Source of the DNA: Girardia tigrina
Lineage: Eukaryota
Reading direction: 5' to 3'
Assembly (NCBI GenBank): GCA_001938485.1
Contig: MQRK01230469.1
Coordinates: 1 to 64,000, forward strand
Length of the DNA: 64,000 bases
Shown in pieces: positions 1,229 to 59,400 of the stretch. The notes beneath the pieces were generated by a model. It had not been told where the DNA came from. It saw nothing but the letters and a program-made list of their open reading frames with translations, and ran no database searches. Both the position numbers and the translations under genes were made by a program. Each line of letters starts with the position of its first letter. The first letter of the stretch is position 1.

Positions 1229-2205
1229 TGGCCACCACGCCTTACAACATTTTGTCTCCAAATATATATGACGGACACAATGATTTGGAACAATTTATTA
1301 TCGAGTGCCAGAGGTTTTTCGAAGTATCTCTGGTAAACGAAACGATACAAGCTCTCGCAGTGAAGGCTTTTATCAACAAGGATCTTCTATCAACATACAA
1401 AGCAGTGGACGAGAAAATAAAGAATTTTGCAGAGCGTCTTCGAAAGGCATTCAAGAAGCCATCGTCATTAATCCATGACTTTCAGGATATTATCAATTAT
1501 AGAAAAGGATCGGATTCGGTAAATTCATATTATAATAAAGTTTAAAAAATGGTGGACAAAATTTTAAGCTACAAATTAAATAAAACTGAGTTAATGACAT
1601 ATTTTGTGACACATTGTGTCAAAGATGTTGATGTAAAAACTCAAATCTATTTGCAGGAAGCGAAGTCCCCCGAAAAAATTAAAATGGTAATCGAAAAAAT
1701 GGATATGATCCACTCGGAAGTCCAAGCTTCAGAAGTGGTCAATATGTACAGGAAAAAGGTGCTGAAGGAGAAAACTGATTTTCAACTACAACAACCAAGG
1801 AAAATGCAATTTGGCAGCGAATTCAGAAAAACAATGACAGGATCACCTAAACAATCGAACTTAAGAACAGAAAACCACAATATCACGTGTTATGGGTGTG
1901 GAAAGAAGAGACACATCCGGCGTACATGCCCAGAAAATGTGAAAACTTGTTATGGGTGCAGAGGCTCGGGACATTTAAGAAGAAATTGCCCATACTTAAA
2001 ATGCGCAGCATGTGGAGCAAACGACCATCTGCAGTATCAATGTAACAGAAAAGAAGACAGTAAGAGGTCAGATAATCGTTATCGATTTAACCAACGGGAT
2101 TCGTCTCCCAAAGTGACTATTGCGGGAATGGATGAAACGGATGGAACTCGACGATCGGGAGGTGAATCGGAGAATCAGTCAAACTTCGAGGCTCTGTCAC
2201 ATTAG
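1228..2205 (+). pseudogene. gag: gag with three CCHC zinc knuckles, one in-frame stop (1543-1545)
   Basis: ORFs 1183-1545 and 1549-2205 are in the same frame; CYGCGKKRHIRRTC, CYGCRGSGHLRRNC, CAACGANDHLQYQC. Confidence 0.9.
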
Positions 2206-2220
2206 GAGGTGATGGGAGCC
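2178..2220 (+). promoter_or_regulatory. Candidate gag-pol -1 ribosomal frameshift signal (slippery heptamer + stem-loop)
   Basis: G_TCA_AAC in the gag frame, 5-nt spacer, hairpin GGCTCTGTCAC/GTGATGGGAGCC (2190-2220); the -1 frame stays open into the protease ORF at 2244. Confidence 0.65.
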
Positions 2221-2243
2221 ATAAACTAAATGGTAAGAATATT

Positions 2244-4725
2244 TTGAATCCTTATATATGTAATAGTATTAAATGTAATTATATTTATAATAGTAGTAAA
2301 AATATTAATGATAGTTATGATATTGGTAATATTTATAAGAATAATAAAAGTGTTAAGGAATACAATGTTAATAGTATGACACCAAATGATAAAAATAAAA
2401 ATTGCTTGAATCAGGGTAGTAAATGGATAAATGAGAAGGGAAATGAAACGAAAATGAGAGAGCTTTTAATGAATTCAAAAATGAAGTTAGATTATGGTAT
2501 ATTTAATGGGAGGCCGAGTATGAAAGCAAATATTGATGGCTGGGAATTAAATTGTTTATTCGATACCGGAGCCCGAATAAATGTACTAGATCAGAAAATT
2601 GTTACAAAATTAGGGATTGTAGTGGATAATAAAGCTTTAAATAAGACAGAAGTAGTGTGTAGCAATGGAAGTGGTATGGAAGTTATGGGTATATGTAGAT
2701 TAGGGATTATTTGGAGAAATACCAAAATAGATGGAGTATTTTATGTGGCCAAGACAGTATTTCCATCGGTAATTTTTGGAATAAAATTAATTGAGGCTTT
2801 GGGTTTTGAATTAAAATATCAGGGAGATGTTAACATAATAGAAGACAGATTGATGAACATTCCAAATATGGAGATATGCGCGATTGATCCATATATAAGT
2901 AAAAATCCGAAGAAAAAAGGCTACAAAATGAGAAATGTAAATTAAAACTACAGACTGGTACAAAGTTGTACATAGCGTAGATAAATTCAGAAATATTTTC
3001 ATGGCTGGTAAGTGGGAAATAGGAAAAAAGACTTTAGTTAAACACGAAATAAAAACCAATTCTACACAAACCTCGTCGACAACCGGCCCATTTGGAAAAG
3101 CATATTGATGAAGCTATAATGAATTTAGAGAATGATGGGATTATAGAGAAATGGTCATCACCGTGGAATACGTCGATGGTTTGCGTATGGAAAAAAGAAA
3201 AGAAAGAAATTCGGTTGTGTCTGGATTTTAGACTATTAAATCAGGTTACGGAAAGACCAGCTTTTCCTATACCAAACATCGATGAAATGTTAGAATCTCT
3301 AAATGGAATGAAATGGTTTAGCGCTATAGATTTAGGCAATGCATATTATCAGATAGAGTTTGAAGAAGGATCGAAATTAAAAACGGCATTTTCGACTAAG
3401 ACAGGACAATATTGTTTTACCAAGATGCCGTTTGGTATAATGGCTGCACCAGCAACGTTTCAAAAATTAATGACAGATATTTTAAAAGAGATGCTGTGGA
3501 AGGAAACCCTGGTATATTTAGACGCCATCTTAATATTATCTGAAACAGAAGTACAACATTTCGAGAGGCTCGAAAGGTTGTTTTCTAGAATTCAAACAGT
3601 AGGACTACGAATAAACCCAGAAAAATGTAGATTTTTTCAAAAAGAGCTAAAGTTTCTGGGCCACATTGTAAGTAGAGACGGTATTAAAACAGATTCAGAG
3701 AAGGTTAAAACAATTCAAGATTTAGAGAAGCCAAACTGCATAAAAAAACTACGTAGTTTTTTAGGATTGTGCAACTATTATAGAAAATTTATTAAGGACT
3801 ATTCAAAATTGTCAAAACCATTAGAAGAGTTGTGTGGAAGTACAAAGAACTCTCTGTATTGGTCAGAATTTCATACCGAAGCATTTAATAAATTGAAGGA
3901 AGCCCTGTCGACTACACCAGTATTATGTTATCCAGATTTCAAGAAAGAATTCATATTAGATACCGATGCTTCATTTGACACAATACGTACTGTATTGGCA
4001 CAGCTAAATGACAATGGATCTAAGACGATATCGAAACATGAGATTGGCTATTGCATTATGAGGAAAGGGCTACTAGCCATTTTTCACTTTACCAAACATT
4101 TTAAACACTATTTATACGGTGCCCGATTTAAATTGAAAACAGACCATAAGACAATAGAATTTATTATGACCACAAAGAAAGCAATAATGCCCCAATTTCA
4201 GAATTGGATGAATTATTTAAGTAGTTTAGATATGGAGTTAAACTACAGGAAAGGAACACTACATCAGAATGCAGATGCGTTGTCACGGAAAGATTGTATG
4301 ACATGTGCACAGTGTCTTTTGATACACGAACAGGCGAAATCAAATAGACCACGAATGAGAATGTTGACGTTAAATGAGGACATGTCACCAATTCCGTGGC
4401 AAACGAATAATGAGGAAATCAGAGAAATATGTGTAAAATTGGATGAAGGTAAGGCCGTTAGATTCAAAAGAAGTAAGGGATGTATTAAAATATTAAATTA
4501 TAAGATCTGGATACGAAAAGACTCTAGGAAAGATTGTATCTCATTTTTCCACCAATATCTGTGTCATGCAGGAGTCGATAAAAAGTACTACTTCATGAAA
4601 AAAGAATATGATATGGAAGAATTCGCAAAACAAGTAGAAGTAATTGTTCGGAGTTGTGTAACATGTCAAACATCACAAACATATACAGGAGCCACTAAGG
4701 AAACAATAATAAACTTGGTTTCCAA
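2244..4725 (+). pseudogene. pol: pol (protease, RT, RNase H, integrase Zn finger), disrupted
   Basis: LFDTGA protease; RLCLDFR, MPFG and YLDA (decayed YxDD) in RT; ILDTDAS RNase H; H..CH...C..C integrase N-terminus; disruptions between 2945 and 3092. Confidence 0.93.
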
Positions 4726-5593
4726 CAGTGGCGAACCCAAGATTTCTGTATGGGAGGGACCCTATAAGTTTAGCTTTGCAAAATCGTCATTTTAAATATT
4801 TAAATACCAGCATTTCCGCGTAATTTCTGTTAGAATATCTGAAATTGGAACCAAAAACGGAATAACGATGGTATTCATGAAATCATCAAGTTATTTAATT
4901 ACAAAACAACTAATGCTAGAAAACTTCACAAGCAGAAGTTCAGCTTTCTTTTGGATTTGGCCAATTCATCAACAATTTTATCCACACCATCCTGCTGAAG
5001 AGCAATGGTAATGTCACGATTCCTTGTCATGTGAGTCAATCCACTAAGTCTCAACGTCTTTATAGTAGAACGAAGGTATATCTTCAGTCGACGCTGTGTT
5101 GAAAAGGAACGTTCTGAACTTGCTGATGTAACAGGTAATGTTGCAAAGATATGCAGAAACACAAATATATTTGGGAAAAATAAGCGATTGCAACTCCGAA
5201 GAGACTCAATTGCAGATGTTGATCTTTGCGAGATTGGGAGTTTCGTCCACTTGCTTGTCCACCGGTTGAACTCAGCTTCCAATACTTCGCATGATGATTC
5301 GTGTAGATCATCCGCATAAAAGTGTGCCGCTTCCATAATGTCTGGGAATGATGACATGGAAGAATACTTTGGGATCAGACACTGCAGTTTTAAAGCGGTA
5401 TTTCTTCCGTCTGCAAAACGTGACTTGAATTGCATTATCAGATAGTCAATATAGGGCAGAAAGATGTTGCGATTGTAATATTCCAAAGAATTTTCACTAG
5501 GCACATTCCCCCTGTGCACCTGCCTTGGGAGAATTCTCGGCAGCTTTATTTCTGATCCCGCAAGAATAGCCATCGAACACATTAGCATGAATA

Positions 5594-8042
5594 TGTCGCG
5601 ACCCCTCGAGGTATAAACATTTTTGAAAGCTTTTGAGCCCCCAGTGGCTCTTAAGGGTCAGCCACAACCCAACATCGATTACAAGATTTACTGATTTCTA
5701 CTTATATGACGGGTCGGACGTCTCTTCTCACTCGACATCTGCCTGGCAGTGCCGAGTTTGAAGGACCTTCGGGTTCTGGTAAAGACGGGATGGCCTTTGG
5801 GCCCCCACCTGGCTGAGCGTCGCACGAGGATGATTTTAAACTATACTTGTTATCCCTATCATGTCTTAGTAATAATCCGAATTAGTTGGTAGTTCTGGGG
5901 ATCACCCTAAAACCTTAAGGTGTCGACCTCACTATTGAAATATTTTATAGTAAGAATGTTACTTAAAGATTTTCACTTCATTTTCATGCAATTTCAAATC
6001 CCTTTATCGTGAAATGACTTAGTTTTATTTGGATTATTGCCATATTATAATTACTAAATCGTAGATTGTTTAGTTACTAAATGACAATCTCGTTAAATCT
6101 TAAACTTTATTTATTTAATACTCAGTGCATTCACTTATTTCATATCAATTTCGTACCGCTTACCGAACTGATGATTTCTTTAAAAACGAAACGATTTCTT
6201 TAAATTACTAATACATCTATATTTATTAAACTCAAAATCTTTCAATAAAATCAGTTAAATTTGATTAATAATAAACTTATAAAATTGAGTTAAAATTAAA
6301 TAAACGTAAAAAAAATATAACTGCATAAATGCACGTAAAAACGTTTGTTTAAATTATCAAAGTTCGACCTTTAATTGTCGACACGGAATTGAACTCTGCT
6401 TAAAATCATGGTTTTACATCGAGCCTGATTGCAAAAGACGCGCTATGTTCGCGCTCGTGACCCACTCGGGTAATTTGTCTTAATTGTTCCTTAAGTTTTT
6501 ATATATGAAATCACTATTATCTTTATTTTATTAACTTTCTCGCACCAACAAAAAAAATGTTAAAATATACGCTTCAAATAATTTAAATATCAATTCAATA
6601 ACGGTTAAAGCGACATTCACTAAAATTCAATACTCCAATTAATTTAAATATTAATTTAATAACGATTAAAACGACGTTCACTAAAATTTATTGCTTTATA
6701 AGATTGAAAGGTTAAGGTTAAAGGCCGATTACGACGGAACGGAATTTCCCGCGCCACCGTCGCTATATGGATCGCTGCACATGAACCGGTGGATCGAGTC
6801 CGTCGAGAAATGATGCGCTGTGAGCGCCTCTGATAAACACCTCCATTGAAATTGACCTTATGTCAACGATCATTAGGACCGTATGGTCCCCCACGAATTC
6901 TGTCGGCTCTACCATTTGGAAATCGATTTGGGACATGTATAGCGACGGGCGACGGCGGCGACGACGACTCTCTACTCTACTTAAACGATTAACTCGGTTT
7001 ATAAATTAAAATCAATGGAAATTAAGGAATAACATTAAAAATTTTCATCATAAAGTTTTATTACACAATAAAAAGAGTAAAAAATAAAATAACTAAATTA
7101 ATTACAGTTCGCTTTATTTCTCGTTTCCGGGGAATGTTCGTTCACGTCGATCTCTATCCTCAGCATGTTCTCGAATGGTAGTGTTGAATCTCCAAATAGC
7201 GCTGGGAAAGGCTCTCGGAAATGCTCTCAGATTATGCGCGTTGAAATTGTGCTGGAAGTCGCGTGTAGATGATAGCTCGAACGAAATGTCTCTATAAAAT
7301 TGTTGATCAATAAGTGCGAGCTGTCTGGAAAAGTGATTCCCTTTTATATTCTAGGTTCCGTGTATGTGGTGTCTCAACTCCACCAATCAACTGCTACCAA
7401 CAAGGAGTCTAGGAACTTCTAAGATGCTGGTTGGACGGCCGAGTAAGCGTGTCTTCTAAAAAATTTTTCAATTTTTGAAAATTTTGATTTTATTATAGGT
7501 TCCTAGCCTGTGTGTCATGGCACACCTTCAAATCCTGACATTCGTGTGCGGCTGCGTCAGCGATGACTCGGCTGAAATTTTCGGGTGATTGTTGACTCAT
7601 GGTGAGTTTTAATTAACATTTGTTTGTTTTAATTAATTCTTGATTCTTTGCAAGGTTATAACTTTCGTCAGGAATAGATTGTCGATCCGGGGATTTCGAT
7701 CATGGGTTCAACGCATGAAGATCTACATGGGAAGGGTCAGTTGACCCCCTAACTATAATGGATAGTCCTGTAGGTAACTTTTTTAATTTCGGGATTATTT
7801 TAATTGATTTTTTCTTCTTTCAGGGTCCACAACCCCTCTTCTAGTCTTCGTGATGCCGCGATACCGCCTCACATGGACCAAAATGATGTGAAGTGTTTTA
7901 TTAGTGAATATATTTTCTGTTAATGTCTTCTTTTTTTTGTGTTGTCAATTTGTTTGTATTTCTAGTAATAAATTTGCTTAAAATATTTTAATGGGTTAGT
8001 ATTTCAAATAATAAATTTTCTAATGGGTTCTGGACCGTAACA
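5594..8042 (-). mobile_element. 2.45-kb solo LTR of a large LTR retrotransposon
   Basis: Ends TGTCGCG...CGTAACA, 4-bp TSD AATA (5590-5593 / 8043-8046); removing it rejoins the hAT ORF; minus-strand TATA at 7342-7348 suggests orientation. Confidence 0.85.
5618..5834 (+). ncRNA. Candidate structured RNA module at LTR terminus (copy 1)
   Basis: Nested helices with G-U pairs, a cUUCGg loop, and ordered motifs shared with 34883-35088. Confidence 0.55.
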
Positions 8043-9754
8043 AATAACAGCAAAGGATTCATCGGCACGCATGGCTTCAAGTTGTTCTTTAACGTCTTCC
8101 ACGTTTTCCACCGCAAAATGCAGATCCAAATCAACTGACTGGAGTGCTTCAGATAGAGGCGATATTAAGGCATTTTTGACCTTTGCTTGGACGCCATTAA
8201 ATTCGCCCGACATTGTCGAACACCCATCATAAGCTTGTCCTCGAAGAAGATTGCCATCCAAGTCATTATATTTCAAAATGTTGAGAATGTTCTCTGAGAT
8301 GTTCTCTGCACACGTGGAACTTAGTTCAGAAAAGCATAGAAATCTTTCCCTAATGTGCAAGTTATCCATATCAACATAACGAAGGCACATACTAAATTGT
8401 GATTGCGTTGCACAGTCCATCGTTTCATCTGCAATCAGAGTGAAGAATCGTGATTTCTTCACTTCACTGGAAATTGTCTGACGGATAATGCTGTCAATCG
8501 CCGCAATAATCTGATTTTGCAAATTCCAACTGATGTATGTAGCATTTTGTGCAGCTGTTGATATATGACGTTCAAGTGCTTTGTCTCCTGATCTGATTTT
8601 GAAACGCTGCAATGCTCTAAAAACACCATCATTTTCATCAGCTTCACTTAATTTTAAATCACCATGATCGCGATGTCCACGAAGAGGCAGTTCCGCAAGC
8701 CCGCAGAATAGAATAGACTCAACTGATGGCATAATTCGAGCACGATTCTCTAAGATCTGTGCACCCCGACCTCTATCAATTAAATTAAGAATTGTCTCGG
8801 ATTCCTTGTTCTGTATCTTGCAGAAATTTTCACTAAACTCCATTGCAGTTTTGTGGTAGTTAGTATTTTTGTGACTCTGGCAAATTTCGATGGCCTTCTT
8901 AAACTTTGCTAATGGCTGCTTCACCAGAACACCAGGGGTTACGGAGGAATTGTATGACACGTCCGAACAGACAAAAAATACACAGTGCATGCAGAACCCA
9001 CCATTCACTTTCTTACTGTAGAGCAGCCAAGGAAATCGGCAAATCCAAGAGAGTTGAAATACCCGTTGTTTACCGCCTTCGGTAACCGGGGGAATTTGAA
9101 GTCTGCTGGTGGTATCCAGGCATCTTGTAGAAATTTCAACTTCTTTGTCTCACTGACGTTAGTTGGATTCAGAGATGTATCACTGATGTCAAAGGGAAAG
9201 GAAACCCAAGCTGCCACCCCGATGGAAGTCGAAGAGATAGTTGTCATAGCGGAGGTTGTGGGGATATTTGCGGAATATATCTTCTTCTGTGGAGGTTCTT
9301 TGTTAGTGGGCATCGTGGCGTCAACTTCAAATGGTCGTTTTACCAGAAAAGCAGAAACTGAAGTTTGTTTCATCTAAAAGTACACTAACAATTCATTAAA
9401 ATATGTAAAATAATCGTCTTTCCTGAAATGGTTTTACCTTTTAGTAAAGAGATCAAACAGGTAAAACGACACACTGAGTATTAACAGGAATTAACAGCAC
9501 ATGCCATTATATAATGTCTACAAGTCAATATAAATACATCCCACTGCATTTAATTGAAAGTGATTGGTCTATTTATAAAGTACAAGGCACAAAAAATTGG
9601 ATGAGTCATAATGCTCTCTGAAAAGTCATACAAATGTCATAAATTCTGGGCACATTTTTGACTGAGTAGGGAGCCAATCATAAAAAGGTCAAAATTTCTT
9701 TGCATATTTTTTGGGGGGCCCGTACCCCTTGTGCCCCGCCTGGGTGCGCTACTG

Positions 9755-14736: not shown

Positions 14737-15739
14737 TTAGGTTGGTCGAAAAATAATGGCGGTTTTGGAGCTTTATACATTGTTTATCTACTTTGATATG
14801 TATATAAGTTTAAATGCATTAGTGTTAGATATTATTTGAAATCTTATGCCTAGCTGTATATTCCTATATCCATTATTAACATATTGCTGTTATTTTTTAG
14901 AATATTTACGGTGCTAAATTAATAATGGAAAAAAATAAAATTCGAGCAATTTTCTTGTACGAATTTAAACTGGGTCGTAAAGCAGCAAAAACGACTCTCA
15001 ATATCAATAAAGCGTTTGGCAAGTGAACAGCTTCTGAGCGCACAGTGCAACGATGGTTCCGAAAATTTTCTGATGGAGATGAAAACCTTGAAGATGAAGA
15101 AGGTCGTGGTCGTCCAGNNNNNNNNNNNNNNNNNNNNNNNNNNNNNNNNNNNNNNNNNNNNNNNNNNNNNNNNNNNNNNNNNNNNNNNNNNNNNNNNNNN
15201 NNNNNNNNNNNNNNNNNNNNNNNNNNNNNNNNNNNNNNNNNNNNNNNNNNNNNNNNNNNNNNNNNNNNNNNNNNNNNNNNNNNNNNNNNNNNNNNNNNNN
15301 NNNNNNNNNNNNNNNNNNNNNNNNNNNNNNNNNNNNNNNNNNNNNNNNNNNNNNNNNNNNNNNNNNNNNNNNNNNNNNNNNNNNNNNNNNNNNNNNNNNN
15401 NNNNNNNNNNNNNNNNNNNNNNNNNNNNNNNNNNNNNNNNNNNNNNNNNNNNNNNNNNNNNNNNNNNNNNNNNNNNNNNNNNNNNNNNNNNNNNNNNNNN
15501 NNNNNNNNNNNNNNNNNNNNNNNNNNNNNNNNNNNNNNNNNNNNNNNNNNNNNNNNNNNNNNNNNNNNNNNNNNNNNNNNNNNNNNNNNNNNNNNNNNNN
15601 NNNNNNNNNNNNNNNNNNNNNNGGCAAAAATGTATTGATGCCAACGGTTCATACTTTGATTAATAAACTTTGTTTCTGTGAATTTGCACGTCTTTGAAGT
15701 TTGTGTCCCAAAACCGCCATTATTTTTCGACCAACCTAA
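14737..15739 (+). mobile_element. mariner (cecropia/Hsmar1-like), spans an assembly gap
   Basis: TIRs TTAGGTTGGTCGAAAAATAATGGCGGTTTTGG at both ends, TA TSD; transposase start MEKNKIRAIFLYEFKLG at 14925 with a premature TGA; C-terminus QKCIDANGSYFD. Confidence 0.93.
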
Positions 15740-17527
15740 TAATATTTTATTTTGAGTACCAAATTACTATGTAATCATTGATCATAATAATTATGTAAAT
15801 TGAAATTTTTTAATCAAATTTTAAAAGTGCTCATATAAGTAATAAAAGAATGAAAAGAAAAGAAGAATAATTATTTCACTTAACACTTAGTAAATCTTTA
15901 ATTTAATGGGTGGATAACAATCGGAATATTTGTTTAGAAGGATGAGTGATTAAGTTTCTGATAATCTAGGTTGATTCTAAATAGTTGAATCATTACAATC
16001 TATTCAAAAAATAATGTGTAATATTTAATTTTTGGAAAAATTAATGTTTAATACAGAAGTAAATGTATCAATTATGCAAATGATCAAAATAAAAAATGTC
16101 TAACGGGTTACTTGTGTTCTATTTTTTAGTTTTTTTCATGATTCACGATAAAATATATTTAGAATGTTTACTAAAATTAACAAAAATATTTTATATAGCG
16201 AAATAAGTATCGATTCACGAACGACATGCACGGGGAATATTTTCAGTTTGTTTTTTTATCTCAATGCATGGATCACAAATAAACCCTTAAAATATCGATA
16301 AAACATACAGTAATCGATTAACTCAAAGGAAAAAACAAGGAATATGAGAATAATAATGAGAGCTTTTTTCAATTCAACATTTTAATTTAGACTGTCTACG
16401 AACATGTTGATATATTTATCACTAATATATAATTAAATATTATAATGTATTATTAATGTATTATTATTAATGTATTGTGAAATTGAATTTTTATTTAGAA
16501 AACATTAAGTTTCTTTTAATATCAAACAATCAAATGTTGGTTTTTGTAAAACATTTTGTGTCCCAATATTTATGATTCTTTAGATTCCTTCTTATTTGAT
16601 CCACAGGTGTTTTACTAACTTGAGTTTTACTAATTACTAACATCATTTTTCATTCACAGTATATTTAAGTATTTTAACATGTTCGTACCAGATATGTATG
16701 TATAAAACTTCACCACAGCATGTGGTCCACATGCAAACTCAAATTTTTTTCATTAAATTATTATAAATTGCCAAAACAGTTATTTTATACACATTAATGT
16801 ACATATTATTTATATTTTGAACATTAACAACACATTTTTGTCCCGCGTCAGTGTGGGATCGTCACTGACGATAAAATTTACGTTCATCTGCCGTACATCG
16901 AGCTTGTTTGTGATTCACTTATTGTGAGATAAGGAATAAATATGAAAAGTAAAAAAAATAATAACAATTCTATATTGGCGAAATATTACTTTTATCGAAT
17001 TCTGAAAACTAAGATTCATGGAATGAAATAATACAAGAATATGTTTCAGTGAACTCTTAACAACTAATATGGATAAATAAAAATATAAATAAATTTTAAC
17101 TAAACTATATTTTATAAAAGGGTAAATAACTAATATATATGAATAATATATAAAGTTTGGCAATATAATTGTTAGATGGAACTCGAGAGAAATTCTTGGG
17201 TTAAGAATTGGTTGGGGGTTTTGTGGAATTTGTATTGTAGAAATTGAGAACGACCAATGGTAGTGGATGGAAATGAGATATCTGAAGCTGTTGTTGTTAA
17301 ATTGTCTCACATTTATATCACAAGAAATGTATTAAAATCTATTGTTGATAGTTGTATAATTCCATGGTAAACTTCTTTTGGAAAGTGAGATAAATGTGAA
17401 AGTTGATTAACCGACACAAAGAAATACAAATTAAAATGTTTCCAAATAGAATTTATGAATTTAATATTTTATCGATCCATATTATCTATATATAATTTAT
17501 ATACATAATTTATTATTAATAAATATA

Positions 17528-34790: not shown

Positions 34791-34858
34791 ATTATTTTAT
34801 ATTGTAGTTTTCAAAAATTATAACAATAAATAATTAATTAACAATATAAGCATTGTTG

Positions 34859-37800
34859 TGTCGCACTCCCTTCTACTCACAACATTTTTGACAACTCTGA
34901 GCCCCCAGTCATTCATAACGGGGAACGGCAACCCGTAGTTCCTCCATCTAATTCTATACCTTTACTAAGGCCAGCGGACGCGTCTCCTCCACGCACGTGT
35001 TCTACTAGTGCGCGCTTCAGAGCGCCATCGGGTTCTAAACAGTGACGGGAATTGCCCGACCGGTGGCCTCAGCGTTCACAGAGATGATAATAACTTTAAT
35101 TATACATATTTACATTGAACCTCACCTCTATAAATTTATACACGGGTTCTATACAATAGAGGAGAGCGTCAGGGAACCATCGCCGGACGTGCGAGACGAC
35201 CTGTGTTGCTTCCAGGAGGTTTCTCGAGTCACTAGTGATCCTCAAATATTTTAAAAATTTGATACTTACATCTTATACTATTTATGTCAATCATCTTAAT
35301 ACCCGACTTGACTGTTTATGTTCTAACCATATTATAAAAATAAAGAATTCAATCCTCAAACCACAAGGAGGTGAATCCGTTATTTTTATTAACTGTTATT
35401 AAAAGGATGGACTAATCAGGTTAACCAAACTAAGTATCATTAGGTGAACCTGTTTAGTATTGTTTAAAAAAACAAAATCAACAAATGAGTTAAAATATGT
35501 ATATCTTTTCAACAATTAACACTTTTATAGATACAACCATTACTAACGGAATAGAGTTGATATATATAGAAAAGATATAGTCGAAACTCTAACGAAGCGT
35601 TGGCGATAGTCTATAAAATAACAAAAAATAATAACGTCACTTCGTCAAAAAAATATATGCAGAACTGGCAACGCGAATTTGATATAATTCATTCATTGAA
35701 ATCATAAATTATTGTCGTCTGGTAATTAAAACTATTTATTTTTAATCGATTTTAAATTCAACATTTAAATTTAAAATCAAAAAAGTTAACGACAATATTA
35801 CAATGAAATAATAATGTAGTTATATTAGTGTTGGTAATTAGACCACCACCAAAAGCCAGTCCATTTGTTTCGCTCAAAAATTGATCGATGTGGTAAGAGA
35901 TAAACCCGTTGTGGTTGGATGTATTGCAGAAGGCATAAAATAAACATGAGCCAATGGTGGCATGAACAAAACATGCTACAAAAGTCTTGAGGATTGCGAA
36001 AAAAGATTTTGGGAAGTCAAATTTGCAATACCCGACGTCAAAAGAAAGTATTAAAATAAAATCATATAATCATAATTATCTTCTTTTTTTCTTTTCTTTT
36101 TCCTTTCATTCCTTTGTTTCAATCACTTCGAATTTGCATAAAAAAATAAAACATAAAAATATGAATAAAAAATAAAAAACACGACACAGAGATTAACATC
36201 AGACCAAAACATAAAGTACATAATAAAAAAAACAAACCCTTACATCAACAGGTTATCAAAAATAAAAATTAAACAAACAAATAAAATAAATCTTTTAAAA
36301 TCTTTACTCATATAAACTATTGATTATCTAAAAGGTTCTTGTCATCATGTACACAATCACAATTTAAATTCTAAATAAAATAAATAAGCTTTGAATGGAA
36401 AGTAGAATCTAACTTGTATTTTCAAGTAGTAAGATTTAAAATGAAGATAATTTAATTAGTCTAAAAGATTTAGTTCTAAAACAAGAAATCAAAATAAGAG
36501 ATAGCTAATTAAACAGATTAAAACGTTTGATTTATATACAACTATATCCTTATTCCTATGAAGTCGAAATTACACTTCAAAATCATATACCTAACTAAAT
36601 AAATAAACCTTTATAAATAAAATACAAATAATCGTTAGATTTTCATATAAACAAATTCTAGTTGACTTAATTTTTACGTGAATTATTTTAGATAAATTTT
36701 ATTGATCATAAATTTATAGACAAATAAATAAATTCTAGTTGCATTAACTTTGCTTCAATCTCCTTGAATAAATTTTAGCAAATGTTCAAATGATCATATT
36801 CATAAATTACACTAAAATAAAACTAATCAAGACAGAATGAAATGTTAGATATAAACAAATAATATAACTTTACCTTTTAATAAATAAATACTGTCAGATA
36901 ATTAAATTGGTTATACAAAGTAGCGCAATTAACTTCGGTAGTTTTAATTAAAGCAAATTTTTGTAATAGAATTAGGGATGTTAAAAATTGTCTGAAATAA
37001 TAATATGCGTGATCTGCTAAAATACTCTCGTATTTATAGCAGAATTCCTTGTAGACTGTTCCAAAATGTCGGCTGCTTACGCAGGCCTACATTTTCTCTA
37101 CCCCTACTAGTGCATATTGTTTACAAATCATCGCATCCTGTGATATCAGGCTGGCAGTTATTCAGCGGTCATGTAACAGTAATTTTCTCTATCCGGCGTT
37201 ACACATTCATTTACAGCCGCCGTTACTTATAAATGCGTATTATTACTTATCGGTGATTCGCATGGACAAAGAGTGAATGTTTTCCTTCCGTTGTTTATTA
37301 ATTCGCATTCTTATCAGCTGCACTTATTCACAGACTCTTAAACGGCTCGTCCATAGGCAGTCAATAATGTTACAGAGGTAGAACGGAGAATCACGCGGTA
37401 GATTATTCACCGCTGATTCACTCTGTTTTTCCAGAATTTATTTTTGGAAACATCCAAGTAAGATTTTTTGAATTAATTAATTAACGATTGTACTTTTATG
37501 GTTTTTTGTTCATCAAGGTTTTCCGAATGGCATGAGGCCTTGTCGTTTCAGGTTATGGAGGAATCAAAACTCAATTCAACATGGTTGTTGGTTAGGCGGC
37601 CCTCATTGTGTCTCGGGCCATACTCCAAATCGGGAAGTTGGTACGACAGTGAAACGTGTGCCGGTAATCCACAACTGCTCTTTTGTTGGGTCTGTTGTAA
37701 GTTATTTATTAATTTGAACCTGTAAGATTAATAACTTCTATTTTGAAGACTAAGAACTTTCGGGGAATGCCAGGAATTCTGGACTTATGCATGGCCATTA

Positions 37801-37953
37801 TTTACTATTTTTTCAATATATGCTTCCGATCTCTTTATTTTTATAGCATGTGTTTAATATTTTTACATCGCAACATATGTATTATTGCCGTATTTTAATA
37901 ATAATATCAGGTTTTAAAACGTCAACATATAAAAACTTTTTGGGATCCATACA
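34859..37953 (-). mobile_element. ~3.1-kb LTR, likely the 3' LTR of a truncated large retrotransposon, distantly related to 5594-8042
   Basis: Left end TGTCGCAC, probable right end GGATCCATACA; shared terminal module; minus-strand TATA at 37031-37038; no TSD match, right boundary less certain. Confidence 0.65.
34883..35088 (+). ncRNA. Candidate structured RNA module at LTR terminus (copy 2)
   Basis: Same motif order as 5618-5834, with different helix sequences that still pair. Confidence 0.55.
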
Positions 37954-44400: not shown

Positions 44401-47400
44401 AAAAATTTAAAATTATTTTTCCTGGAATGCTGATAATTTTTTTATATATTGTCATATTTTTATATTTGCTTTGGTCCGTACCGAACTACACCCTTATTTT
44501 ATTTTCTAAATAAAATATCAATTTCTAAATTTTCAATATCAATTTTAATTGAAAAATTAATAATTTTACTTTAAAAGAAAATTGATTTTCTTTGTTTTTG
44601 AAAAATAAAGTTAAAATTTTCAAATATTAACTGAAAATTGAATAAAAAATTAAAAGTAAAAAAAAAACGAAATGAAATCTGAAAAAAACAAGTATTTTTA
44701 CATTAAAAAATCGATAATTGTTTTTACAAATTTATCGATATTAAATCCCAAATAAACAAAATAAAACAAAATGTTTTTTGAAGTAAATTAAATCAATGAT
44801 TAAGTATTTGTAAATAATCAAATATTAACTGCAAAATTAAACAAAAGAATTCAAATATAAACTCTTAAAATAATAGCAGAATTAAATTTCTAATAAATCC
44901 GAAACCATCGAGACATTTAAACAATTTAAATATGATTGTGCTAGATATTCTCAAACCGATGGGGACCCATAACCAAATACAGTAAAGGTTTAGATTAAGG
45001 TTCAGTGTTACGAGATTAGATGATGTTACGTGCGTTTCTTAAAAGCATGTCAGTGGACATTGTTACAAGTTAAGATTAAAATTGAAAGGAAACCGGATTT
45101 AAAACGTAAAGATTAGGTACAGTTTTCTCATAATTCAGTGCCAAATTATTTATCGTCTTGCTGTGAAACAATAAATATCTTTTATTTCTGTCAAACTCCA
45201 GAATTGAAGTATTCGCAAAATTCGATTTTTTTCTTGATCTATCGGGTTTTAATTGATTTTCAGAGATTCAGAAGTATTTATTTGTTTTTGTTGACAATGT
45301 GCCTCGTGTGTATCATTCAAACGGCATTGTCGGCCGGTTACATGAGCTCTCAAATCACGACACTCGAGCGTCGTTTTTCTCTTGACAGTTACATGCTCGG
45401 GGTCATTCAGTCTTTCTTTGATGTTGGTTTCATCGCGTCTGTTGTGTTTGTTGGTTTTTTTGGAGGTCAAGGTCGAATACCTCTCTGGATCGGCTGCGGG
45501 ATGCTCATTATGAGTCTCGGGGCGTTCTCTTTTGCCGTACCAGAATTCATTACGACTTTCCATGTGAGTTTTACTAATCGATTCGATTATTACTATTATT
45601 TATTTTTTTACTACTTGTCAATTTGCTTTTCGATTTTGTTATTACAATAAATTTTATTGAAACAATTAGAAAAATAATATTTGTATTTATACACTCAAAA
45701 AATCAGTGCAATTTGTGTGCAGGGAATATTATTTCACAAATAATTAAATATTAAAATTAATAATGCCATTCAAAACAACTAAATTTTATTGTCTGAATTT
45801 GTGTAACAGCTGAATTCACTAACTATATGAAAAAGTTTCATTTTAATATGAAAAATATCAATATAAAATGAAAAAATATCGATTTAATATGAAAAAATAT
45901 CGATTTAATATGAAAAAATATCGATTTAATATGAAAAAATATCGATTTAATATGAAAAAATATCGATTTAATATGAAAAAATATCGATTTAATATGNNNN
46001 NNNNNNNNNNNNNNNNNNNNNNNNNNNNNNNNNNNNNNNNNNNNNNNNNNNNNNNNNNNNNNNNNNTATCGATTTAATATGAAAAAATATCGATTTAATA
46101 TGAAAAAATATCGATTTAATATGAAAAAATATCGATTTAATATGAAAAAATATCGATTTAATATGAAAAAATATCGATTTAATATAAAAATATCAATTTA
46201 TTATGCAAAATAGTCTCGAAATGTAAAATTTTATTCATAGTTATTATACATTCTTTCTGGATGGCGAGCCGAATTGCGAGCGTCTTTACATTGTATCTAT
46301 AAAACATTTTTTTTCATATTAAATGTTAAGATTCATTTCATAATTGAATTAAAAAAACTTTACAAAAATTCATTATATACAAATTGTGTAGTAATTTTAA
46401 AAATTATTGGGAAAGAACGTTGTTATTTCGTCTTTGTATTTCTCTTGCAGAAACTTTATATCTTGACCATGTCATCCTTCTCTGTATATTTTCTTACCGA
46501 TTATAATTTCAGCTGGACTCTTGCTCATTATTTTCTGAAAAGTTGCGTTTACGTCACTTTCATTATTAACAGATTCCATTTTCATAACTCAACACCAAAA
46601 TTTTTTTAATGATTTTCTTTATTATATCATTTTTAATTTTAAACTTGTATTTATTTGCTTTTTTTTAAACTTTCAAATTAACAAAATAATAAACTATTTT
46701 GGTGAAATTCAAATTTAAATTGACCCCACATACAATCAATTACATCAATAAATTCCAAAAAAATCCCACCCCAAAATTATTTACCTCTTTAAATTTCTAT
46801 ACGATTTAAAATTCAGATAATTTTAAATATGTTATGAAATAAATAAAATCAAAACTTAAAGATCGCATAAAATATACATTTTTTTACCACGTTTTTCTTA
46901 GCTTGGTTTCTTGTCTGTTTGTCTTTCTGTCTGTCTGTCTTTCTGTCTGCCTGGAACAAATCTTGCGATTGATTTTTCGACCACTTTCAGTCATCCAATT
47001 GAGCTGATTTTTTTTATACAGGCTTGTTTCCGATGACAATACAATATTTTAAAACACTTACGGCTCTACATAAACCGCATATGCTATAATTTAACTTTAT
47101 GAAAAAAATCAATAATATTAATTAATACGTACAAAAAAATTATTTTGAAATAAAACTTGCTTTTATTAAAATAAAACTTTGTTATTTTGGTTTTATTATC
47201 ATTTCTGTTATTCGAAATCAATCGAAATATTTGAATTCCTAAATGATAACTAAAAATAGTTAAATAGTATTATTAATAAAAATTTTTTATAAAAACAACC
47301 ACGTTTTTCAAGCATTACCAATGCACTAAAAATAGGAAAATAATTTTTTTCTAGACATGTGAGAAATTTTATACCTAACCAAAAACGTGGGGCATAGAAA

Positions 47401-56400: not shown

Positions 56401-59400
56401 TTTTTTGCTCAAAAATCAACAATTAATTATAATTTATTGATGATTTATTTTAAAAAATATTTTATCATTATTTATTCCATATAATATATAGTCAATATTA
56501 AGAGAATTTACTTTAAAACACTCCTTATGTATAAATCTAATAATGATTCGTGAATGTAAACTTAGAATCAATGTATTTTCGCCAAATTTATTGAAAATAA
56601 ATGTACCAGTGAATTATTTCAGTCGAATTTGACTCAGATTTACCGTTTCTATAGCATAGTTGATCGTTATATCATCTATAACATTAAAGTTTTATAGTGT
56701 TGATTCGAGAGATCACATGAAGAGTTAACAGACCAGATATTCGAGCAATTTTCTTGTACGAATTTAAACTGGGTCGTAAAGCAGCAGAAACGACTCGCAA
56801 TATCAATAAAGCGTTTGGCAAGGGAACAGCTTCTGAGCGCACAGTGCAACGAGGGTTCCGAAAATTTTCTGATGGAGATGAAAACCTTGAAGATGAAGAA
56901 GGTCGTGGTCGTNNNNNNNNNNNNNNNNNNNNNNNNNNNNNNNNNNNNNNNNNNNNNNNNNNNNNNNNNNNNNNNNNNNNNNNNNNNNNNNNNNNNAGTC
57001 CTGGATCATTTAAAACAACTTGGAAAAATCAAGAAACTTGATAAATGGGTTCCACATGATTTGAATGAAAATCAAAAGAACCGACGCTATGAAATTTGTT
57101 CTGCCAATCACCTTCACAATAAAAACGATCCATTTCTTGATCTTATTATTACCTGTGATGAGAAATAGATCCTGTATGATAACAGACGTCAATCTGCACA
57201 GTGGTTGGACAAAGATTAAAAAAAACTTTCCAAAACCGAAATTAACACCCCGTAAGGTTATGGTGACAGTTTGGTGGTGTGATGCTGGAATCATCCACTA
57301 TAGTTTCTTGAATCTAGGTGAAACAATCACAGCGGAGAGATACTGTCATGAAATTGATAAAATGCATAAAAAATTGAAAACCCTTTGTCAAGGATTGGTC
57401 AATCGAAAAAGTCCCATCCTTCTTTATGATAACGCTAGACCTCATATTTCAAAGGTGACTCTTCAAAAACTTAATGAGTTGGGCTATGAAACCCTGCCTC
57501 ATCCACCATATTCACCAGACCTCTCGCCAACGGACTTCTACTTTTTCAGGCATTTGTACAACTTCCTACGTGAAAAAATTTTCAAAAACCAAAATGATAC
57601 TCAAAATGCCTTCCAAGAATTCGTCGCTTCGAGAACCGATGCATTTTATGGTGATGGAATAAAACAACTTGTTTCTTGTTGGCAAAAATGTATAAAAAAC
57701 GGTTCATACTTTGATTAATAAACTTTTGTTTCTGTGAATTTGCACGTCTTTGAAGTTTGTGTCCCCAAACCGCCATTATTTTTCGACCAACCTAATATTA
57801 AAATTTTATATTTTGAAATAGAAATATTGGTTTGAGGAATAAGTAAACGATGTTTTATTACATTAAACGATTCACTTTTTATTTAAATAATCAGTTATTT
57901 TCTACCATATTAGAGAGATCCTGACATTTTGCTTCGAAATTAAACATGACAATCAATGTCTTCAAACATCTAAATATTCTTTCTAGATTTTAACATCGAA
58001 AAAAACTTCTATTGGCTGGTTGACTTGACAAAAACCTACATTCACTGTTTCTGGTAAAGATTTTTATTACAACTCGATTATTTAACGCATCGCTGAATCT
58101 TTCAGTTCATCTTTTCCTTTCATCTTTTTCCTTTTATTTTTCCATTCATCTTTTTATTTTACTATGTATACGTATTGAACTAATTTCATTTCTTTTAAAA
58201 TTTGATTGTCATTTCAATACCTCTTAATAAAAATGTATAATTTGCTCGAATAACTGTAACTTTAATTATCATGTGTCTTTAGAGCCGTGTGTCATGCGGC
58301 TCCAAGTCCCTACTAAAACCGTCGTTTTCTCTACATACTTCTTCATACTTCTTATGTATATTCAAGTTTTAGTAGAACAATTAATACTAACAAAACGCCT
58401 CCAAGAAAATATATAGGTATTAATGATATTGTATTTATTGGCCGCTCGTATGATCTGGAAAATTCGATATTCGATACCTACATTGTTCTAACACTAGAGG
58501 CTGCTCGATCAATTTCAGCTTTGCAACCATACTTCCACCGGAACCCATAGACTTAGGTTTCCCGGTGACTTCTCGCAAGGAGATTTGAATTACCTTCGCG
58601 AACTGTCAGTTGGCTTCGTTCTTGATTAATGATAGCATTCTGCGCAAATGCGTTCGCAGTTGTTTGTCTGGTGATGATCTAAGAATTTCACCTCTAGCAC
58701 CACCATACATATGCCCCCGACAGTCTCTTAATCATTAATTCAGTTTCGAAAACCAACAAAATAAAACTGAAGTCCTATTTTATTATTCCATGCAACAATA
58801 TACAAGCATAAGCCTGCTTTAAGTACTCTAATTCAAAGTAAACTTGTCGGTCATCCTCAACACCCATTAAAGATCATCAAAGATATACACGACGTCGAAT
58901 GATAAGATAGCTATCGTATATTTTAAATAATCTTTTTCCTCAATTTCTTTTACTACGAGCTTTTAATACTAGAGCAATTAATACTACTGAAACGCCTCCA
59001 AGAAAATATATAGATATTGATTAGGTCTGAATCCCAGAAGTGGACAAATCATTCATTTTATCATTTGTGCGACTCAAAAACCTAATTTGCATATCATCTA
59101 TGACAATATCCATCATAAATTACTAGTATAAAAAAGTCCCGTTTGTTCATTAAGACTAATATTTAATAGAAGAAAAATTATGGATTATTCTTTTATTAAA
59201 ATCATAATGAAAAATTATGTGAAAAAAATATAATGAAACTGTTTAAATGCCATTGAACTTAATGTGATCATTATATCAGTGATGTTATAAGAAACGCTCA
59301 TTTGGCCTCATTTGATATGAACAACTGAACTGAGAGTGTCATCTTTTAAAAGTCGATAAAAAGGACAATAACAAATTAATAAAACTAACGAAGGTCTGGA

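Follow-up and report, generated by a model that had tools for sequence, protein, structure and literature searches.

Two giant LTRs lie in the window analysed here, which is the whole stretch of 64,000 nucleotides at the start of Girardia tigrina contig MQRK01230469.1, and both carry the same structured module at one tip, which raises the question of which nucleic acid folds there, on which strand, and what the fold is for. The initial annotation had read the module as a structured RNA of the plus strand, antisense to the LTR, with possible IRES, ribozyme or decoy functions, or as a fold of the minus-strand strong-stop DNA. The part of that proposal which described a retrotransposon-borne, covarying structure without an Rfam family has stood; the antisense RNA, IRES, ribozyme and strong-stop DNA readings are not needed to explain the data.

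Setting and orientation of the two LTRs

The features of both LTRs are collected in Table 1. LTR A is inserted in a hAT transposase gene. LTR B, the end of which was set by comparison with copy L146/L056, is flanked by 4-mers unlike each other and was oriented by homology because a search for a PBS-linked family-B copy found none, its four look-alikes being one insertion without a PBS.

Table 1. Positions in the window of the two LTRs and of their module features (tRNA-Pro positions are numbered sequentially in a 75-nt tRNA)
Feature	Position	Strand	Description
Solo LTR A	5594..8042	minus	2449 bp; TG..CA ends; 4-bp target duplication AATA
H0 (GGCUC-N1-2-GAGYY)	5628..5639	minus	mini-hairpin; overlaps internal site; weakened in LTR A copy
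Segment 3 (UGGGGGCUCA), LTR A	5634..5643	minus	antisense to tRNA-Pro 3' end, nt 66-75
H-type pseudoknot, LTR A	5644..5670	minus	S1 4 bp, L1 1 nt, S2 6-7 bp, L3 4-5 nt; stem 2 abuts internal tRNA site
AT-rich variable spacer, LTR A	5671..5710	minus	roughly 30-60 nt among copies; from alignment
Long hairpin P2, LTR A	5720..5766	minus	predicted basal extension partly over segment 2
Segment 2 (GAACCCG on minus), LTR A	5770..5776	minus	antisense to tRNA-Pro nt 49-55 (T-arm 5' strand); PAS-like
Hairpin P4, LTR A	5783..5810	minus	6-7 bp, 2-nt bulge, 4 bp, 5-nt loop; directly abuts segment 1
Segment 1, LTR A	5811..5835	minus	antisense to tRNA-Pro nt 1-24 (5' acceptor strand and D arm)
AATAAA, LTR A	7113-7118	minus	motif match only
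TATA-like motif, LTR A	7341..7348	minus	from sequence alone; no match at corresponding place in L151
LTR B (family B)	34859..37875	minus	3017 bp; orientation from homology
Internal PBS-like site, LTR B	34897..34907	minus	11 nt; duplex with tRNA 3' end -24.2 kcal/mol
Pseudoknot region, LTR B	34908..34936	minus	geometry alike by eye; C.A mismatch in stem 2 on minus
Hairpin P2, LTR B	34980..35025	minus	
Segment 2, LTR B	35029..35035	minus	antisense to T arm
Hairpin P4, LTR B	35039..35064	minus	
Segment 1, LTR B	35065..35089	minus	antisense to tRNA-Pro nt 1-24; duplex -23.9 kcal/mol

The similarity between the two LTRs is confined to the tip, as had been proposed: the only substantial alignment joins positions 21-253 of LTR A to positions 22-242 of LTR B (63%, E=1.6e-7), and the second best is an AT-rich match of 32 nt (E=4e-4). 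Among family-A copies, which were picked with the module as query, homology mostly ends at about position 240-260. Partial copies (L037 and L058), matches with N or cut ends and two truncated copies (L108+1657 and L021-1011) were dropped before counting.

A tRNA-Pro PBS, matched by host tRNA-Pro genes, adjoins the module-bearing LTR end in 4 of 30 related family-A loci; the minus strand is therefore the sense strand, in agreement with the initial annotation, and the module lies at the U5 end. PBS-LTR junctions numbered 259 (control, 0), and the primer is tRNA-Pro in every PBS-linked family found, with a full-length PBS of 18-19 nt and a computed duplex of 19 bp. The AATAAA motif would place the poly(A) site far upstream of the module and give LTR A a U5 of about 1.5 kb.

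In U3, the plus strand carries conserved elements of intron-like GT..AG form, a hint that the LTR is also transcribed in antisense. Splice-donor-like motifs upstream of the module number 23 on the minus and 7 on the plus strand among 71 non-independent stretches, a count that is suggestive only. Metatranscriptome contigs cover the module and cross the PBS in 2 of the 4 runs examined as contigs, but these show no strand, start, end or GT-AG joint and are therefore not evidence of transcription. None of nine listed sequencing runs (all contigs) held half of the module's words, a metagenome pattern scan for the module gave 5 matches that were all unrelated tandem repeats, and a scan of viral contigs gave 0 matches.

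Burro elements of dugesiid planarians have been described with a polyprotein in the order Gag, ubiquitin-like, BCL2-like, mononegaviral-type fusion glycoprotein, protease and dUTPase, an upstream MATH/TRAF accessory ORF, kilobase LTRs and thousands of copies (passages of PMC6431247). One PBS-linked internal region has a domain order consistent with Burro: on a contig that also carries a family-A PBS, a single ORF downstream of that PBS (L126:770-4060) matches the Env-like fusion glycoprotein family PF24664 (E=2.6e-82), followed by protease (E 0.007-0.05) and dUTPase (E 0.005) matches that are weak and below their cut-offs; Ty3_capsid (E=5e-4) and ubiquitin (E=1e-4) matches, both below cut-off, also stand in Burro-like order. 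Burro elements are further marked by an RT-RNase H-integrase part and a total length above 30 kb; the contig here stops just past the dUTPase, the assembly being fragmented. Pfam gave no BCL2 match in the PBS-linked internal region, where a motif spotted by eye is presumably BCL2-like. In family D, an ORF with zf-TRAF and MATH domains (E=1e-32) begins about 0.7-0.8 kb after the PBS. Given the likeness in the order of glycoprotein, protease and dUTPase, MATH/TRAF accessory ORF, kilobase LTRs and copy number, LTR A and LTR B are classed as Burro-like giant Ty3/gypsy elements; the published account, in the passages available, differs in covering proteins only, with the LTR RNA element and the primer absent (PMC6431247).

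Covarying helices and the folding strand

The covariation claimed for the module is beyond chance. Over 30 copies, the 41 pairs of a structure with helix registers and tRNA mappings assigned by eye and in part with regard to the minus strand, were paired in 89.4% of cells, compared with 74.5% after shuffling and 38-45% after sliding, and 25 of the 41 showed two-sided changes. In 41 disjoint sister pairs drawn from 83 copies, 16 double changes preserved pairing against 3.3 ± 1.9 expected (0/1000). An unguided mutual-information scan placed its top Watson-Crick-rich pairs within P2, the remainder being family-level noise.

Hairpin P2 corresponds to the helix annotated as ACTCG/CGAGT in one LTR and CGCAC/GTGCG in the other, has two-sided changes at 12 of 18 pairs, and was predicted independently on both strands by RNAalifold, with greater stability on the minus strand. 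The "further hairpin" of the initial annotation is P4, which is paired in 89.4% of cells, has two-sided changes at 8 of 11 pairs, shows 45 G.U against 7 A.C cells on the minus strand and keeps its layout in family D with a longer bulge. The H-type pseudoknot rests in families A and C on compensatory changes, with stem 1 reading GGGU/ACCC in family A and AGAGUU/AACUCU in family C and with compensation at 4 of 5 counted pairs of stem 2. A legal, mismatch-free version was found on the minus strand in 57 of 87 copies, the commonest geometry, 4/1/7/0/4, accounting for 30; all six family-B copies shown failed this mismatch-free search. Mini-hairpin H0 is paired in 95% of cells, with 28 G.U and 0 A.C cells and no two-sided changes. 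A three-way junction closed by a helix P1 was rejected, as P1 is Watson-Crick paired in 79 of 150 cells, varies in register by family and is missing in family D.

Other annotated elements did not survive the alignment. The outer stem GGTCGG/CTGGCT has a C.A mismatch at one pair in 51 of 83 copies and three G.U pairs, and the copy in the window carries a private change. In the hairpin GGAC-cTTCGg-GTTC, the 5' bases covary instead with an upstream GYS triplet (GTC/GAC, GCC/GGC, GCG/CGC) and the 3' strand never compensates, while family D has CCTTCCAGGTTC and no UUCG loop. Both the CGTCT/AGACG helix and the GACGY-GCGTY pseudoknot draw on bases that belong to P2 and P4, and their pairing is broken in families C and D. 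The annotated ATG is likewise not supported as a start codon: it occurs in 63 of 83 copies as part of a tRNA D-arm copy in segment 1; its frames (64 of 97 matches with ATG) are short and unrelated, at 2-74 aa with a median of 15.5 aa, and share no peptide.

As to the strand, wobble direction, consensus folding and pseudoknot geometry favour a fold of the genomic (minus) RNA over the plus-strand fold first proposed. The RNAalifold consensus of 12 copies reaches -23.76 kcal/mol (24 pairs) on the minus strand versus -16.38 kcal/mol (17 pairs) on the plus strand. Among independent sister pairs, single changes on the minus strand comprise 85 between Watson-Crick and G.U versus 47 between Watson-Crick and A.C. 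Recurrent G.U and A.C pairs stand at 31:9 pair-by-family cells (p=0.0007), and the loop geometry of the pseudoknot is legal on this strand. Folded as single sequences, the copies are unexceptional, with a mean z of -0.33 for the plus and -0.35 for the minus strand; the plus strand has the lower raw MFE in 24 of 32 copies and is favoured by one pseudoknot pair in family B.

Rfam holds no family matching the module, either in the window at E<=1 or in five loci of four families at E<=5, where the scan gave 4 sub-threshold matches, none over the module. The hammerhead consensus is a CUGANGA and GAAA core around a three-way junction; this core is absent from both strands of the alignment, the closing helix is not conserved, and no Rfam match was found. 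Resemblances to type IV IRES, HDV, twister and pistol elements, drawn by eye against consensus features, were dropped and had no Rfam support.

Complementarity to the primer tRNA

Read on the plus strand, TGAGCCCCCA, CGGGTTC and CTCAG...GGGGATGAT, all conserved, are host tRNA-Pro pieces in sense orientation, which makes them tRNA-pairing sites on the genomic RNA. Complementarity to tRNA-Pro nt 1-24, 49-55 and 66-75 is conserved in four families, with duplexes of about -23, -13 and -21 to -24 kcal/mol for segments 1 to 3 versus an MFE of -31 kcal/mol for the tRNA, and each segment abuts one helix (P4, P2 and the H-type pseudoknot). The pieces are not collinear with the tRNA, their order on the plus strand being 3' end, T arm and 5' third, so that a simple, captured tRNA insertion was rejected. 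For a Pol III box A/B reading, no conserved box A was present.

Segment 1 pairs with tRNA-Pro nt 1-26 at a median of -23.0 kcal/mol, compared with -7.8 to -15.9 kcal/mol for 12 other host tRNAs (best anywhere on them, -18.4), -12.4 ± 1.8 kcal/mol for shuffles (0/300) and -10.8 kcal/mol for the plus strand. The stretch that faces the acceptor strand has a degenerate middle, which reads CUCAG, CUCCG or CUUUG in the commonest A subfamilies. Weighted over 41 clusters, departures from full complementarity were G.U rather than A.C by 27.1 vs 3.0 in the D arm, 55.6 vs 3.5 in the 5' acceptor strand and 8.8 vs 3.2 in the T arm, an excess inflated by the composition of the tRNA segments, in which G/U positions outnumber A/C positions (7:2, 6:3, 5:2). 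Segment 2 is exact in 62 of 83 copies, with 7 bp in families A to C and 8 bp, one of them G.U, in family D; it is weak alone, as tRNA-Ala binds equally (-13.3 vs -13.4) and one match of its type arises in 23 of 300 tRNA shuffles. In the RNAalifold consensus, segment 1 stays unpaired and so does segment 2 apart from its last two bases, which pair with the strand after P2 and show no two-sided change.

The T-arm and 5'-acceptor pairings had been recorded before family D, which was found by its PBS alone, was seen. Family D keeps the hairpins, the T-arm match and the internal site, along with an exact 9-nt D-arm match that was first noticed there and afterwards held in families A to C. Nested whole-molecule cofolding placed tRNA-Pro first in 3 of 8 copies and among the top three of 13 in 8 of 8; this method cannot use crossing sites together and discriminates weakly.

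Segment 3 lies about 50 nt into the LTR and resembles a second PBS. A PBS and an internal site spaced 30-60 nt apart were found at 206 genomic places (control, 0). Among the pseudoknot matches listed, the internal site is intact in 66 of 100 (counted by eye) and damaged in 34, one damaging change being common to three separate insertions, and the PBS-linked copy L170/L172 lacks it. All 18 variant-site copies fetched, several of which are duplicates of one insertion, keep a normal LTR end and therefore give no sign of priming from the internal site. Self-priming was rejected, as the internal site and the PBS run in the same sense.

A putative primer-binding scaffold and its alternatives

Since the conserved stretch is complementary to three parts of tRNA-Pro, it likely grips and unfolds the primer, and we consider it probable that the U5-end module is an extended primer-binding scaffold that captures and unfolds tRNA-Pro for reverse transcription. 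The genomic RNA would fold into two hairpins and an H-type pseudoknot, with flanking strands complementary to the three tRNA parts. Annealing to the PBS would free the 5' acceptor and T-arm 5' strands of the tRNA and destabilise its D arm; segments 1 and 2 would then hold exactly these freed strands, leaving the anticodon arm alone folded, and the intermolecular duplexes may stack on the adjacent P4, P2 and pseudoknot stem 2. More speculatively, the tRNA 3' end would dock first on the internal site of 10-11 nt, where the stacked pseudoknot would block extension, and then move to the stronger PBS about 50 nt away, with H0 closing the vacated site. This staged docking, hand-off and closure is proposed tentatively, the balance lying somewhat against it. 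The fullest version is rather doubtful: the LTR would be a self-contained tRNA-capture switch that unzips the whole tRNA-Pro, parks its CCA end on a decoy PBS, which could not prime because a pseudoknot locks its first template bases, and lets it pass to the true PBS in full-length genomic RNA alone.

Alternatively, the PBS might hold the primer while segments 1 to 3 bind another tRNA-Pro that does not prime and that would serve packaging or dimerisation, or else a Ty3-like 5'-3' bridge, provided that transcripts extend through the 3' U5. The three segments all lie within the LTR and could jointly bind a whole tRNA without the PBS, and for Ty3 it has been proposed that tRNA mediates cyclisation and dimerisation (passages of PMC4974528). 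This arrangement is nevertheless quite unlikely: segments 1 and 2 match the strands freed by PBS annealing, so that one tRNA explains both; Ty3 dimerisation and packaging survive loss of the tRNA or PBS, according to the same passages (PMC4974528); and sequence signals suggest, as noted above, that the poly(A) site lies far upstream of the module.

It is very improbable that the sites bind fragments of tRNA-Pro and not the intact primer, with 5' fragments on segment 1 and 3' fragments on the internal site, in a decoy or self-limiting role. Segment 1 spans the 5' third of the tRNA and the internal site its CCA end, but the T-arm site, the helices abutting each site and the position beside the PBS would be left unexplained. 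For a 3' fragment, the match at the internal site is to its 3' end and not to the 5' end that would serve as the seed. Repression of LTR elements by 3' tRNA fragments acting through the PBS has been described (bioRxiv 10.64898/2026.01.22.698655, in the part available).

There is hardly any likelihood left for a plus-strand structured RNA acting as IRES, ribozyme or decoy, for which speak the ability of P2 to form on either strand, the lower plus-strand MFE and the intron-like elements of U3; against it stand the three strand tests, the failure of the UUCG hairpin and outer stem, the D-arm ATG, which 20 of 83 copies lack and which leads into no conserved frame, and the lack of Rfam ribozyme or IRES matches and, by inspection, of a hammerhead core. 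Just as remote is a function in minus-strand strong-stop DNA, such as tRNA displacement or aid to strand transfer, since although all three segments are present in this DNA as tRNA-sense copies and several hairpin loops are only 1-3 nt, a size that DNA tolerates, the tolerated changes are those that keep genomic-strand pairing and the RNA-type pseudoknot geometry exists only on the genomic strand.

The scaffold reading has partial precedents. In Ty1 and Ty3, extra genomic-RNA segments pair with the T and D arms of the primer tRNA, those of Ty1 serving primer packaging and initiation, and a 5' pseudoknot is required for Ty1 reverse transcription (passages of PMC4974528, PMC5371799). Segments complementary to both arms occur here too. 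By comparison, the present elements have an 18-19-nt PBS and tRNA-Pro instead of an 8-10-nt PBS and initiator tRNA-Met, and a second CCA-end site abutted by a compact H-type pseudoknot. The segments lie in U5, 5' of the PBS, whereas in the accounts available those of Ty1 lie 3' of the PBS in GAG and those of Ty3 in the 3' UTR, and the 5' acceptor strand covered here is unpaired in Ty1. The retroviral PAS of HIV-1 and the U5-TpsiC interaction of Rous sarcoma virus involve a leader segment of 7-8 nt complementary to the primer T arm and partly hidden in a helix (passages of PMC11181671, PMC3185550), and segment 2, with its 7 bp (families A to C) or 8 bp (family D), resembles it. The PAS is one short contact, in contrast to three sites of about 40 nt in total, set among covarying helices at a distance of 170-240 nt from the PBS. 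Literature searches returned, in the part of the listings shown, no description of the module element, and found no second CCA-binding site abutting a pseudoknot; such a site suggests a possible staged, regulated step in priming.

How primer tRNAs are selected, packaged and unfolded, and what non-PBS contacts contribute, is still argued even for HIV-1, where the PAS interaction itself is disputed (passages of PMC3185550; for the wider debate also PMC11181671). The HIV-1 evidence consists of short, poorly covarying contacts; the planarian elements offer four divergent families as a natural series, across which about 40 nt of complementarity to the tRNA, with G.U-tolerant changes, and the helices are conserved in a fragment of about 300 nt while the remainder of the LTR is unalignable. 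If the capture-switch reading were true, each transcribed solo LTR, of which there are thousands per genome, would also be a trap for tRNA-Pro. For Burro, described in the published passages by its proteins only, the module adds a cis-element and a short diagnostic with which its LTRs can be found and oriented.

Module position and element identity

The window comes from a fragmented, AT-rich animal assembly of 1.43 Gb. Outside the module, LTR A and LTR B lack substantial similarity, as the initial annotation had held, with their first ~250 nt (63%, E=1.6e-7) as the sole substantial alignment; the module was also said to be unmatched to any known RNA family, and a scan of Rfam returned no match to it. 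Genome searches yielded 2901 and 997 first-look candidates, with 40 scored for each. In copies of family A (the LTR family of LTR A), which were picked by module match, identity of 70-90% mostly ends at position 240-260. In L004, L013, L022 and other loci, the modules are ~90% identical and the adjoining U5 is unalignable beyond LTR position 250, pointing to either recombinational exchange of modules or very rapid U5 turnover in such subfamilies.

The stretch adjoining the module end is identical to the host tRNA-Pro 3' end in 4/30 family-A loci, and a genome-wide pattern search for this primer-binding site (PBS)-LTR junction found 259 matches (control, 0). Since a tRNA-Pro PBS adjoins the module end, the retroelement runs in sense along the minus strand, with the module as the U5 end, directly before the PBS. 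A PBS-linked copy of family B (the family of LTR B) was sought and not found; the orientation of this family therefore rests on homology. In one PBS-linked family-A internal region, accessory ORFs are followed by Gag-like and ubiquitin-like regions and then by a single multi-domain ORF encoding a Monjiviricetes-type fusion glycoprotein (E=2.6e-82), a protease and a dUTPase, while family D carries a TRAF/MATH ORF downstream of the PBS. This domain order and the TRAF/MATH ORF fit planarian Burro elements as described in the available text of PMC6431247 and point to a dugesiid planarian as the host; the available parts of PMC8532177 and PMC11410931 name Burro for expression or size only. No description of the module was met in the literature covered, which comprised work other than the original Burro description and its supplements. 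Family D looks young, given its many near-identical copies of an intact TRAF-like ORF.

A pattern search for the PBS accompanied by a further tRNA 3'-end copy (the internal site) 30-60 nt away found 206 genomic places (control, 0); 100 were listed, of which 30 were taken as loci and 20 further were fetched. These loci revealed many extra A subfamilies and another divergent family, C. Among 20 further PBS junctions, all missing from that list, 10 belonged to the very divergent family D (internal site ~70 nt from the LTR end in nine, a gap in one), nine came from A or C copies whose internal site is damaged or replaced, and one was interrupted by other sequence. The internal site is undamaged in 66 of the 100 pseudoknot matches listed (131 in all). 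Most repeated damaged variants are duplicates of one insertion, yet three separate insertions carry the same change; the normal LTR end is retained in all 18 fetched copies with a variant site.

Features of the window and of related loci
Feature	Position	Strand	Remarks
Small Ty3/gypsy element, unrelated	1546-4795	plus	Broken gag-protease-RT frames
hAT transposase gene split by LTR A	4926-5593 and 8043-9149	minus	DUF4371 and hAT dimerisation domains, one either side
LTR A	5594-8042	minus (sense)	TG..CA ends, 4-bp target duplication
Splice-donor-like motif, LTR A	6156-6165	minus	Strong, upstream of module
GT..AG intron-like elements, U3 of LTR A	7602-7654, 7770/7774-7823	plus	Short
Transposase fragments, two, related	14906-15763 and 56704-57718		Both with assembly gaps; presumably mariner-like (by eye)
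LTR B	34859-37875	minus (sense)	End set against another copy with clean target duplication; flanking 4-mers (34855-34858 vs 37876-37879) unequal, unlike LTR A; may be a recombinant of two insertions
Splice-donor-like motif, LTR B	35262-35272	minus	Strong, upstream of module
GT..AG elements, LTR B	37457-37520, 37699-37749	plus	Similar to those of LTR A
OATP-family transporter exon	45117-45650	plus	E=1.6e-27
Small-subunit rRNA gene fragment, eukaryotic	58481-59004	minus	Degenerate
Coiled-coil-like ORFs, family A	L065:3768-5822, L068:3074-4500, L070:2953-3378		Several, between PBS and Gag, without Pfam family
Gag-like ORF, family A	L125		~7 kb past PBS
RING/zf-TRAF/MATH (TRAF-like) ORF, family D	L211:1376-2746 and related loci		Intact, ~455 aa, right behind PBS

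Predicted fold and folding strand

On the minus strand, the module is predicted to comprise segment 1, hairpin P4, segment 2, the long hairpin P2, a variable AT-rich spacer, an H-type pseudoknot, the internal site, mini-hairpin H0 and the LTR end, followed by the PBS. P4 (6-7 bp, a 2-nt bulge, 4 bp and a 5-nt loop) keeps an identical register across families A, B and C. Across 30 representatives (14 A, 6 B, 10 C), the 41-pair structure model has 89.4% of cells paired compared to 74.5% after shuffling and 38-45% after sliding, with two-sided changes at 25 pairs. Because relatives share changes, 41 disjoint sister pairs drawn from 83 copies were also compared; these showed 37 double changes (22.3+-4.0 expected), including 16 that preserve pairing (3.3+-1.9 expected; 0/1000). 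Covarying helices in a module absent from Rfam were thus correctly observed in the initial annotation, but its outer stem, UUCG hairpin and 3' pseudoknot fail against the alignments, and RNAalifold does not return the UUCG stem. A closing helix, P1, was rejected as not conserved.

The plus strand had been proposed to fold, but wobble states, RNAalifold energy and pseudoknot loops side with the minus strand. Recurrent minus-strand states are G.U rather than A.C by 31:9 (with P1 and mis-registered pseudoknot stem-1 columns counted in), and single changes in sister pairs are G.U-type rather than A.C-type by 85:47. For the same 12 copies, RNAalifold with no structure supplied gave -23.76 kcal/mol on minus and -16.38 kcal/mol on plus. 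The minus-strand pseudoknot has legal loops and is mismatch-free in 57/87 copies (commonest geometry: S1 4 bp, L1 1 nt, S2 7 bp, L3 4 nt); the same stems on plus would have to cross the minor groove with a loop of 1-2 nt, and a plus-strand search found only weaker alternatives, in 32/87 copies. By contrast, z-scores of single sequences lie close to zero on either strand, raw MFE is lower on plus in 24/32 copies, and one family-B pair favours plus. The minus-strand sense and a structured retroelement RNA without an Rfam family stand from the initial interpretation; its folding strand and its proposed functions do not.

Complementarity to tRNA-Pro

The minus strand holds three unpaired segments complementary to host tRNA-Pro (numbered 1-75): segment 1 to nt 1-24, segment 2 to nt 49-55 (exact in 62/83 copies; in family D, one change to a G.U pair and one pair gained) and segment 3, the internal site, to nt 66-75. 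The pieces are out of collinear order with the tRNA, and each adjoins a helix (P4, the P2 base and pseudoknot stem 2, respectively). On the plus strand segment 1 ends in GGGG-ATGAT (A), GGGGTA-GAT (some C), GGGGTATG (some A, one B) or GGGTATGAT (D), all subsets of the tRNA D-arm sequence; the supposedly conserved ATG is present in the module, but inside this D-arm match.

The duplex of segment 1 with tRNA-Pro nt 1-26 has a median energy of -23.0 kcal/mol (92 segments, nine being identical family-D copies), compared to -7.8 to -15.9 kcal/mol with 12 other host tRNA types from the genome and -12.4+-1.8 kcal/mol for shuffles (31 representatives, 0/300). Departures from complementarity are mostly G.U, but G/U positions also outnumber A/C. 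In the most frequent A subfamilies, the anti-acceptor stretch is degenerate at its centre; tRNA-Ala fits segment 2 equally well, and nested cofolding ranked tRNA-Pro top in only 3/8 copies. A D-loop change in one tRNA-Pro(CGG) gene (L187), possibly a variant or a pseudogene, gives a slightly closer match to the most frequent form of segment 1 (median -24.7 kcal/mol, against -23.0). In families B and C, the anti-D-arm C-run may have an alternative partner, over 5-6 bp, in a purine run close to the LTR end (A, ~3; by eye); this pairing (alignment columns 28-33 and about 306-313) may compete with tRNA binding and with a U5-leader stem.

The genomic strand very probably pairs with tRNA-Pro at these sites. 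That this pairing serves primer capture or initiation is likely, the main rival explanation being that the module binds a second, non-priming tRNA.

Possible roles in primer handling

Judging by TATA-like and AATAAA motifs, U5 may be 1.5-1.8 kb long, in which case the module would lie in the 5' leader only. Upstream of the module, splice-donor-like motifs number 23 on minus and seven on plus (71 stretches), and the module and PBS might sit in an intron, retained in unspliced RNA only. The two GT..AG elements of LTR A align across four family-A LTRs, inside a second, weaker conserved block (68-70%), and suggest a spliced antisense transcript from the Burro U3.

The module would work similarly to the extended PBS of Ty1/Ty3, as covered in the available text of PMC4974528 and PMC5371799, and to the retroviral PAS, as covered in that of PMC11181671 and PMC3185550. 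However, it is outside the Ty1/Ty3 arrangement: its element has a full-length PBS and a different primer, its segments are upstream, in U5, with the 5' acceptor strand predicted to be bound, and it has a second CCA site and a pseudoknot.

Covariation, position and complementarity are read directly; the tRNA handling beyond them we infer. The internal site would form a 10-11-nt duplex with the tRNA (-21 to -24 kcal/mol) and, more speculatively, could be a first dock, where the 3'-OH would stack on the pseudoknot and extension would be blocked; the tRNA 3' end would then shift to the PBS, and H0 would close the vacated site. We consider this switch rather unlikely. Pairing of the PBS with the tRNA 3' 18-19 nt (-43.6 kcal/mol in a young copy) would release two tRNA strands, the 5' strand of the T arm and the 5' acceptor strand. 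These, along with the D arm, would be held by segments 1 and 2, so that the anticodon hairpin alone would stay folded, and such holding would aid primer selection, packaging and stability, as the extra segments of Ty1 do.
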